Of a stretch of DNA of 64,000 nucleotides, positions 43,323-43,412 are shown in pieces. The notes beneath the pieces are model-generated. The model did not search any database, was not told the DNA's origin, and was given only the letters and a program-made list of their open reading frames with translations. Position numbers and translations under genes: made by a program. Source of the stretch: a virus (taxonomy: Duplodnaviria; Caudoviricetes); IMG/VR virus record IMGVR_UViG_3300027805_000006; one strand, 5' to 3'. Position 1 is the first letter of the stretch, and every line of letters begins with the position of its first letter.

Positions 43323-43412
43323 TGGTCCCGCCGTGTGGAATCGAACCACATCCTGGACCTTATCTAGATTAAGGGCTTATAAGACCCCCTGCTCTCCTTG
43401 AGCTACGGCGGG
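43323..43412 (-). tRNA. atypical tRNA-Ile(TAT) with a 21-nt extra region
   Basis: Acceptor CCCGCCG/CGGCGGG-A-CCA, D arm GCTC/GAGC, loop CT-TAT-AA, T arm TGTGG-TTCGATT-CCACA. Confidence 0.75.

Follow-up and report, generated by a model that had tools for sequence, protein, structure and literature searches.

What does a phage tRNA with the anticodon UAU do when its anticodon arm is followed by an additional segment, which should not be there in a tRNA for isoleucine, and that folds into another loop of anticodon type? The question is raised by a 90-nt tRNA gene on the minus strand at positions 43323-43412 of the window, that is, the whole 64,000-nt stretch of viral DNA analysed here, which is the minus strand of a virus record in IMG/VR (85.8 kb, estimated to be 24% complete). 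To our knowledge, AUA is the sole sense codon for whose reading bacteria normally depend on an essential enzyme, TilS, to rewrite a CAU anticodon first, and this detour is needed because isoleucyl-tRNA synthetase (IleRS) rejects a plain UAU anticodon. The IleRS of E. coli performs 360-fold worse with UAU than with LAU, the lysidine-containing anticodon for AUA (PMC3575796, Table 1). The most probable reading of the gene (to which we assign a probability of about 80%) is that it encodes a phage elongator tRNA that reads AUA as isoleucine through its UAU arm, and whose variable-region hairpin copies positions 34-38 of the tRNA-Ile(GAU) loop.

The tRNA gene and its fold

The gene encodes a genuine phage tRNA with a UAU anticodon. 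ARAGORN calls it tRNA-Ile(tat), one of the 16 tRNAs that this program finds in the window, all of them on the minus strand, and the Rfam tRNA model RF00005 matches it with 46.3 bits (gathering score 29) over model positions 1-71, placing an 18-nt insertion in the variable region. The 5' strand of the acceptor stem, CCCGCCG (43406-43412), pairs with CGGCGGG at 43327-43333 and is followed by a UA linker and by the D arm GCUC-AAGGA-GAGC (43391-43403), whose 4-bp stem closes a minimal 5-nt loop in which A14 and GG are kept. An AG linker leads to the anticodon arm GGGGU-CUUAUAA-GCCCU (43372-43388), with the anticodon UAU at 43379-43381. The 21-nt variable region that comes next is composed of a 2-nt linker (UA), a hairpin of 3 bp (here possibly 4), AUC-UAGAUAA-GGU (43357-43369), whose loop contains GAU at 43362-43364 and then AA, and a single-stranded tail, CCAGGA (43351-43356), that lies between the hairpin and the T stem. 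The T arm, UGUGG-UUCGAUU-CCACA (43334-43350), has 5 bp and a canonical T loop, and the molecule ends with the discriminator A73 (43326) and an encoded CCA (43323-43325). Acceptor stem, D arm, T arm (in a 7/5 arrangement), A73 and the encoded CCA are all canonical.

A long variable arm is not a feature of bacterial tRNA-Ile, and UAU is a rare anticodon. The sequence-only reading of this locus had recognized a tRNA with a UAU anticodon, which is borne out by ARAGORN, by RF00005 and by the covarying first arm, and an abnormal extra segment, which is real and measures about 21 nt. Comparison with relatives indicates that these 21 bases form a small conserved hairpin that would display GAU, the ordinary isoleucine anticodon. 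The same reading had described the two anticodon-like arms as overlapping and mutually exclusive, and here it was mistaken: the alignments place two anticodon-type arms, UAU and then GAU, in tandem and 2 nt apart.

Distribution of the family

Relatives were sought in IMG/VR contigs with an exact 26-mer and with D-arm, variable-arm and gapped patterns, the D-arm and gapped patterns placing no constraint on the variable loop. The tRNA family comprises 78 copies in phage contigs, in which UAU, A37, A73 and the encoded CCA are invariant, and the 32 distinct sequences among them form the alignment A2. Mean column identity in these 32 sequences is 86%, and the flanking genes are unrelated among the phages. 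When the genomes of 185,579 bacterial and archaeal species were scanned with a pattern that covers only the sequence family of the 43323-43412 gene, there were 15 matches, all of them in coding sequence, and no tRNA copy; blastn against cultured phages, both with the tRNA and with the 4.5 kb around it, returned generic tRNA fragments only. Homologues of the 24 window ORFs around the tRNA are absent from the 77 other loci, with the exception of one nuclease that is present in two of them. The tRNA appears to travel independently of its neighbours, because the genes that flank it in the window are not common to the other carriers. Neither a partner enzyme nor a consistently adjacent defence or toxin gene was found at the tRNA in the 78 loci, and a scan of the window for promoters gave no match immediately upstream of the gene.

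The ORF located just upstream of the tRNA (43492-43989, minus strand) belongs to the aspartyl/asparaginyl beta-hydroxylase family (PF05118, 28.5 bits), and the 548-aa ORF that stands before it (43986-45632) has no match in Pfam or PHROGs.

The full 90 nt, with other flanks and without an internal joint, are also found in contigs of three sequencing runs, one of which (X12) is a metatranscriptome library, in which DNA carry-over is possible, and two of which are probably DNA; only the tRNA-sized part is common. These contigs show that the gene is present in other phages, with no obvious excision, although contigs cannot reveal processing, and the runs give no indication of transcription, of RNA ends or of habitat. 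An intron-like insert, one of the explanations offered earlier for the extra segment, is a weak candidate and finds no support, given that family length is fixed and the 90 nt are intact in the contigs of the three runs. The segment also lies after the anticodon stem and not at position 37/38.

Conservation of the UAU arm and of the canonical stems

In the 32 distinct sequences, 98.1% of the cells of the canonical stems are paired and 13 pairs are changed on both sides, a score that none of 500 shuffles equalled. All seven pairs of the acceptor stem show two-sided changes (98.7% of cells paired), and the stem of the UAU arm is 99% paired, with four of its five pairs changed on both sides; its versions include GGGGU/GCCCU, GUCGG/CCGAU, GAUGC/GCAUU, GAGCA/UGCUU, GCUCG/CGAGU and others. 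UUAUA (positions 33-37, comprising UAU and A37) is invariant throughout, so that U33 and a purine at position 37 are present in every sequence. The D stem GCUC/GAGC is also invariant in the family, its loop position 15 being A, G, U or C, and the D loop has 6 nt in some members versus 5 nt here. U12-A23 and A73, which are known isoleucine identity elements of E. coli, do not change in the family; C4-G69 and C29-G41 vary.

Within the family, U8 and A65 do not vary. Pair 49:65 is U-A in the window and C-G or G-C in the relatives L204 and L196, where position 8 stays U, and it is because of this covariation that the 7/5 fold is adopted and an 8/4 arrangement is rejected. An alternative proposed by RNAfold, in which AUCU pairs with GGAU and which implies 8/4, is compatible with the family and is ruled out by the same changes at 49:65 in L196 and L204. 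Two further pairings of the anticodon arm with the variable region were considered and discarded. A 9-bp helix (GGGUCUUAU/AUAAGGUCC) occurs only in the subgroup to which the window belongs and is lost in members of the GUCGG type. A pairing of the tRNA with its "own codon", between CUUAU of the anticodon loop and AUAAG of the variable loop, is no evidence, since this complementarity follows automatically from UAU and GAUAA loops, and its fifth pair is not kept in relatives.

The variable-region hairpin

Within the family the variable stem is AUC/GGU in 21 sequences (with GAU as its 3' side in L012) and GUC/GAC in 11, which corresponds to pair 46:58 being AU in 21 and GC in 11, and pair 47:57 being UG in 20 and UA in 12. 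The loop has 7 nt, U/C-A-G-A-U-A-A, with A where U33 would stand; its positions 34'-38', G-A-U-A-A, are invariant with the exception of L150 (AGAUUAG, a change of A37' to U), and positions 32' and 33' vary. A fixed G-A-U-A-A next to variable 32' and 33' positions is more in keeping with a recognition element than with a second site of decoding. The CCAGGA tail is invariant in the 32 distinct sequences, including those from searches that did not demand it, and in relatives it becomes CUAGG or CGAGA.

The covariation of this hairpin within the family amounts to about one evolutionary event, and the strong support for its stem comes from distant families, found with a pattern that demanded UGAUAA. 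Viral contigs were searched for UGAUAA preceded by a UAU loop and followed by a T arm, and 36 distinct sequences were obtained. Ten of the 11 that have a proper UAU arm show 3/3 pairs around a 7-nt Y-U-G-A-U-A-A loop, a flanking complementarity that forms no part of the pattern and would be expected by chance in about 5%. The covariance model built from A2 aligns 23 long UAU tRNAs of phages, in which the variable stem occurs in 12 versions with 69 of 69 cells of the 3-bp stem paired. Among these versions are AUC/GGU, GUC/GAC, GAC/GUC, GAG/CUC, CUG/CAG and GGG/CCC, in addition to longer stems of which three inner pairs were counted (GGGU/ACCC, GCGU/ACGC, GAUU/AGUC and GGAU/AUCC). The variable loop of the related phage UAU tRNAs always reads Y-N-G-A-U-A-A, L150 being the one exception in the family. 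On its own the hairpin is thermodynamically weak, with a pair probability of 0.08-0.09 (ViennaRNA).

The same covariance model aligned ordinary tRNA-Ile(GAU) genes so that their true anticodon arms fell on the variable hairpin, from which it follows that hairpin and tail closely resemble an isoleucine anticodon arm together with its variable loop. The loops read YUGAUAA in the ordinary tRNA and YAGAUAA here. Unlike in an ordinary tRNA-Ile(GAU), the GAU loop of the phage tRNA sits on a 3-bp stem at the variable position, has A in place of the universal U33 and comes after a complete UAU arm. No description of a variable arm with a GAU loop was found in the open-access literature searched.

This resemblance could also be explained if the extra hairpin were a functionless remnant of a tandem duplication of the tRNA-Ile(GAU) anticodon arm, tolerated because variable arms of class II size fit the ribosome. 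Hairpin and tail do align with the anticodon arm and variable loop of tRNA-Ile(GAU), as such an origin predicts, and the phage carries an ordinary tRNA-Ile(GAU) of its own (60242-60318, minus strand; anticodon arm CCAUC-UUGAUAA-GGUGG), to whose inner arm the hairpin is identical at 12 of 13 positions. This identity to the resident arm is nevertheless found in just 1 of 27 loci, and we treat it as a coincidence for that reason. A neutral leftover should moreover decay, whereas G-A-U-A-A and the tail are fixed and the stem compensates in 12 versions, and both the fixed loop and the compensating stem are found in families that are otherwise different along the whole molecule. A functionless remnant is unlikely on these grounds.

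Other phage genes resemble this arrangement. In L086, positions 2549-2638 (minus strand) hold a diverged second UAU tRNA, about 950 nt from the family copy, with the hairpin GGG-CAGAUAA-CCC; it has two acceptor-stem mismatches and scores 63.6 bits against the family model, and may be a paralogue or a decaying copy. In L168, L173, L179, L182 and about 20 similar loci, 76-nt tRNA-like genes contain GUUAUAA followed directly by a hairpin of the CCC-CUGAUAA-GGG type and are, by a simple test, without an ordinary 5-bp UAU stem.

The CUA hairpin and amber reading

A different hairpin had been proposed for the extra segment, CCUUA-AUCUAGA-UAAGG (43358-43374), with CUA (43365-43367) at the anticodon positions of its loop. 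It pairs perfectly in this copy and shares C-C-U with the first arm, as was claimed, and it is not conserved. The family does carry a second anticodon-like stem-loop in the extra segment, although in another register and with another identity (GAU and not CUA). Across the 32 distinct sequences the CUA hairpin is only 70% paired and so fails the conservation check across homologues; its two outer pairs cannot form in 24 and 15 of the 32, its three inner pairs (U-U-A/U-A-A) never covary, and the whole hairpin is present in at most 8. It is with the first arm that C-C-U covaries, and the CUA triplet is CCA in 11 of the sequences. According to ViennaRNA, the fold with the CUA arm has -28.1 kcal/mol, versus -30.8 to -31.7 kcal/mol with the UAU arm (2.7-3.6 worse), and the CUA hairpin has a pair probability of about 0.001 in the ensemble. 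The record reads normally under code 11, with 99 non-overlapping ORFs that occupy 83% of it and with 62 TAA, 25 TGA and 12 TAG stops. It is for these reasons (pair counts, CCA variants, fold energies and normal code 11 reading) that the CUA arm and the amber idea are rejected, and we judge the hairpin to be a chance pairing.

A molecule in which overlapping UAU and CUA arms alternate, as an amber suppressor or a conformational switch, is hardly credible in this light. It would be in keeping with the perfect CCUUA/UAAGG stem around a 7-nt loop with U-CUA-G in this one sequence, and with the separate, ordinary tRNA(CUA) genes in 2 of the 78 related loci, which show that suppressors exist in this phage group. 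Against it stand a hairpin that is whole in no more than 8 of the 32 sequences, with outer pairs broken in 24 and 15, the replacement of CUA by CCA in 11, a fold 2.7-3.6 kcal/mol worse with a pair probability near 0.001, and a genome that fits code 11 with TAG as an ordinary stop.

One of the ordinary tRNA(CUA) genes, 74 nt long, is located at L076:5547-5620 (minus strand), in a contig that also carries the UAU/GAU tRNA; such genes are called by ARAGORN in 2 of 78 loci.

Use and meaning of AUA

AUA accounts for 375 of 23,592 codons (15.9 per 1000), which represents 24% of the isoleucine codons. Its meaning was examined by comparing homologous ORFs of the 78 carrier loci codon by codon. In the carriers, AUA aligns with isoleucine first and then with valine, leucine and methionine, in the same proportions as AUU and AUC, and its partner profile is quite unlike that of leucine or serine codons. 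At 74 AUA sites in genes of the window phage, the partners are Ile in 27.7%, Leu in 17.8% and Val in 14.9%, compared with 28.4, 14.4 and 16.4%, respectively, for AUU. One glycosyltransferase with 119 aligned homologues contains just three AUA codons, too few to be informative. These profiles indicate that AUA is an isoleucine codon here, and not serine, leucine or stop. Isoleucine-like AUA sites would also be expected if a host tRNA-Ile2 reads them, and a minor, different charging of the phage tRNA may exist.

The preservation of a full set of tRNA features and the heavy use of AUA also bear on a non-translational role, which had been suggested in the form of a decoy or regulatory mimic. In this explanation the RNA would be a decoy or sponge, for instance for a host anticodon nuclease or for another factor that binds tRNA-Ile, or would be linked to mobile or toxin-antitoxin elements, as has been suggested for allo-tRNA(UAU), with the GAU loop acting as bait. 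Phage tRNAs are known to counter tRNA-cleaving defences, this RNA carries two isoleucine-type loops, and its mean column identity of 86% is maintained among phages with unrelated flanks; non-translational roles were also proposed by Mukai et al. for allo-tRNA(UAU) (PMC5389517). On the other hand, every translation feature is kept (a 7-bp acceptor stem that covaries, the A73-CCA end, the T loop, and, in the first arm, both U33 and A37), the phage uses AUA heavily, its CCA-adding enzyme and its many other tRNAs fit codon supply, and no defence or toxin gene is consistently adjacent. Because of the full canonical features and the heavy AUA use, a decoy or mimic is less likely than a working AUA decoder, and we hold it to be distinctly unlikely.

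Comparison with long-armed UAU tRNAs

The long variable region invites one more explanation, in which the molecule would be a class II or allo-tRNA-like recoding tRNA whose long arm recruits SerRS or LeuRS, so that AUA would be read as serine or leucine. A73 is compatible with leucine identity, which counts for such a role. Bacterial class II tRNAs have a 3-bp D stem and a variable arm that is conserved in length and orientation rather than in loop sequence, and SerRS does not read the sequence of that loop. In the phage tRNA, by contrast, the D stem is the invariant, 4-bp GCUC/GAGC of class I type, the arm is limited to 3 bp and is conserved in the sequence of its loop, and the real Ser, Leu and Tyr tRNAs of the same loci are separate genes. 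The covariation of 49:65 points to 7/5 and not 8/4, and the discriminator is A73 instead of G73 or U73. The AUA sites, both in the carriers and in the window phage, behave as isoleucine, which argues against a recoding to serine, as an allo-tRNA might produce, or to leucine, as a nev-tRNA might. Taken with the comparisons that follow, recoding appears very improbable, and decoding of AUA as isoleucine is maintained.

The allo-tRNA(UAU) group (Mukai et al. 2017, NAR 45:2776, PMC5389517) shares with the phage tRNA a metagenomic origin, the UAU anticodon and a long extra arm, and UAU is, as that paper reports, the commonest anticodon among the allo-tRNAs published, which speaks for recoding. The allo-tRNAs are described there as molecules of soil bacteria in which acceptor and T stems are arranged 8/4 or 9/3, the D stem is long and capped by a tetraloop, and position 73 is G or U, and the allo-tRNA(UAU) as having odd, possibly five-stem structures. 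When these defining features (8/4 or 9/3, the long D stem and tetraloop, G73/U73) were looked for in the phage tRNA, none was present; its stems are instead arranged 7/5, its D stem of 4 bp closes a loop of 5-6 nt with GG, its discriminator is A73, and it is borne by phages. Six converted allo-tRNA(UAU) variants inserted no serine in E. coli (PMC5389517), which counts against recoding, and the main text of that paper makes no mention of a GAU loop. The nematode nev-tRNA-Ile(UAU) (Hamashima et al. 2012, PMC3333845) likewise combines UAU with a long variable arm, and a nev-tRNA(UAU) is reported in that source to be charged with leucine in vitro, a further point in favour of recoding. The nev-tRNAs are, as described there, eukaryotic class II molecules, whereas the AUA sites of the phages are isoleucine sites and the phage arm is short and conserved in its loop.

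Proposed charging of the UAU tRNA

In the 85.8 kb of the record, which correspond to about 24% of the genome, no IleRS domain was found and no TilS gene, a PP-loop match being sub-threshold only, so charging presumably depends on the host enzyme. In the proposed mechanism, the UAU anticodon, on its normal 5-bp arm, would read AUA as isoleucine, and the GAU-A-A loop would supply the G34, A35, U36, A37 and A38 that are read by isoleucyl-tRNA synthetase. The enzymes that make t6A37 could perhaps also read this GAU-A-A signature, which the first arm is without. A host IleRS that discriminates against U34 might in this way still charge an AUA decoder, without TilS or lysidine. Such a mimicry, with GAU-A-A enabling a host IleRS to charge a U34 tRNA, is a model, and we advance it as a tentative leading guess, well short of even odds. 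Put in terms of an identity decoy, GAU would be the "charging anticodon" and UAU the "reading anticodon", and alternate conformers would perhaps swap the position of the arms, the GAU arm occupying the anticodon-arm position for charging and the UAU arm for decoding; this version is doubtful, if attractive. By analogy with known complexes of class Ia synthetases with tRNA, the 3-bp variable arm should lie near the elbow of the L-shape, far from the site at which IleRS binds the anticodon, so that mimicry would require an unusual docking or an arm swap. Otherwise, the arm could be the retained remnant of a tandem duplication of an anticodon arm that now serves the packing of the core.

A close parallel is the TilS-independent tRNA-Ile2 of Mycoplasma mobile (Taniguchi et al. 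2013, PMC3575796), which has UAU for AUA, A37 and isoleucine meaning, as here, and which bypasses lysidine formation, as the phage tRNA would. The tRNA-Ile2 of M. mobile is an ordinary class I molecule, whereas the phage tRNA has a 21-nt variable region with a GAU-A-A loop. In M. mobile it is IleRS itself that is changed (Arg865) to accept U34 of tRNA-Ile(UAU) (PMC3575796); a tRNA carried by a phage must work with an unadapted host IleRS.

That a phage family of UAU tRNAs also conserves a copy of the GAU anticodon loop points to a new means of circumventing the TilS/IleRS restriction, and the design would be a natural example of identity elements moved outside the anticodon arm. If this is true, phages would gain lysidine-independent decoding of AUA in any host, and confirmation would account for the ability of AT-rich phages to support the decoding of AUA across unrelated hosts, would provide a portable design for codon reassignment and for the engineering of orthogonal tRNAs, and would lead to a reinterpretation of the puzzling allo-tRNA(UAU) group. 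For annotation, 43323-43412 should be entered as tRNA-Ile(UAU), and not as a suppressor, a pseudogene or a class II Ser or Leu tRNA.

Other tRNA genes and tRNA processing

The window encodes a CCA-adding enzyme (tRNA nucleotidyltransferase; 23844-24956, minus strand; PHROG 2244, E = 1.9e-84), although the 43323-43412 tRNA and most of the others encode their CCA. An 87-nt tRNA-Cys(GCA) with U73 (60129-60215, minus strand; Rfam 58.3 bits) likewise combines a class I type with an enlarged variable region, in this case of 18 nt, with a possible mini hairpin ACC-GAAA-GGU and without an anticodon-like loop. Between 54967 and 56704 (minus strand) the tRNA calls of ARAGORN and Rfam disagree, and several irregular tRNAs may be present: one Arg(UCU) gene and a pair of Pro(UGG) genes, with anticodon stems of 6 bp (55634-55981), are called by ARAGORN only and not by Rfam, and the tRNAs at 56635-56704 and 54967-55036 by Rfam only and not by ARAGORN. 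An 88-nt tRNA-like gene in the same stretch (56063-56150, minus strand) is called by ARAGORN and is absent from the Rfam gathering list; its anticodon loop carries GUU (Asn), its variable arm has 5 bp (UGCAG-GAA-UGCA), its T loop (AUCGUAA) is not canonical, and it lacks CCA. Finally, tRNA-like genes with the same D arm as the UAU tRNA, GCUC-AAGGA-GAGC, and with a CUU (Lys-type) anticodon loop are present in L009, L011, L025 and L062, where a GC-rich insertion of about 25 nt seemingly interrupts the region before the T loop.
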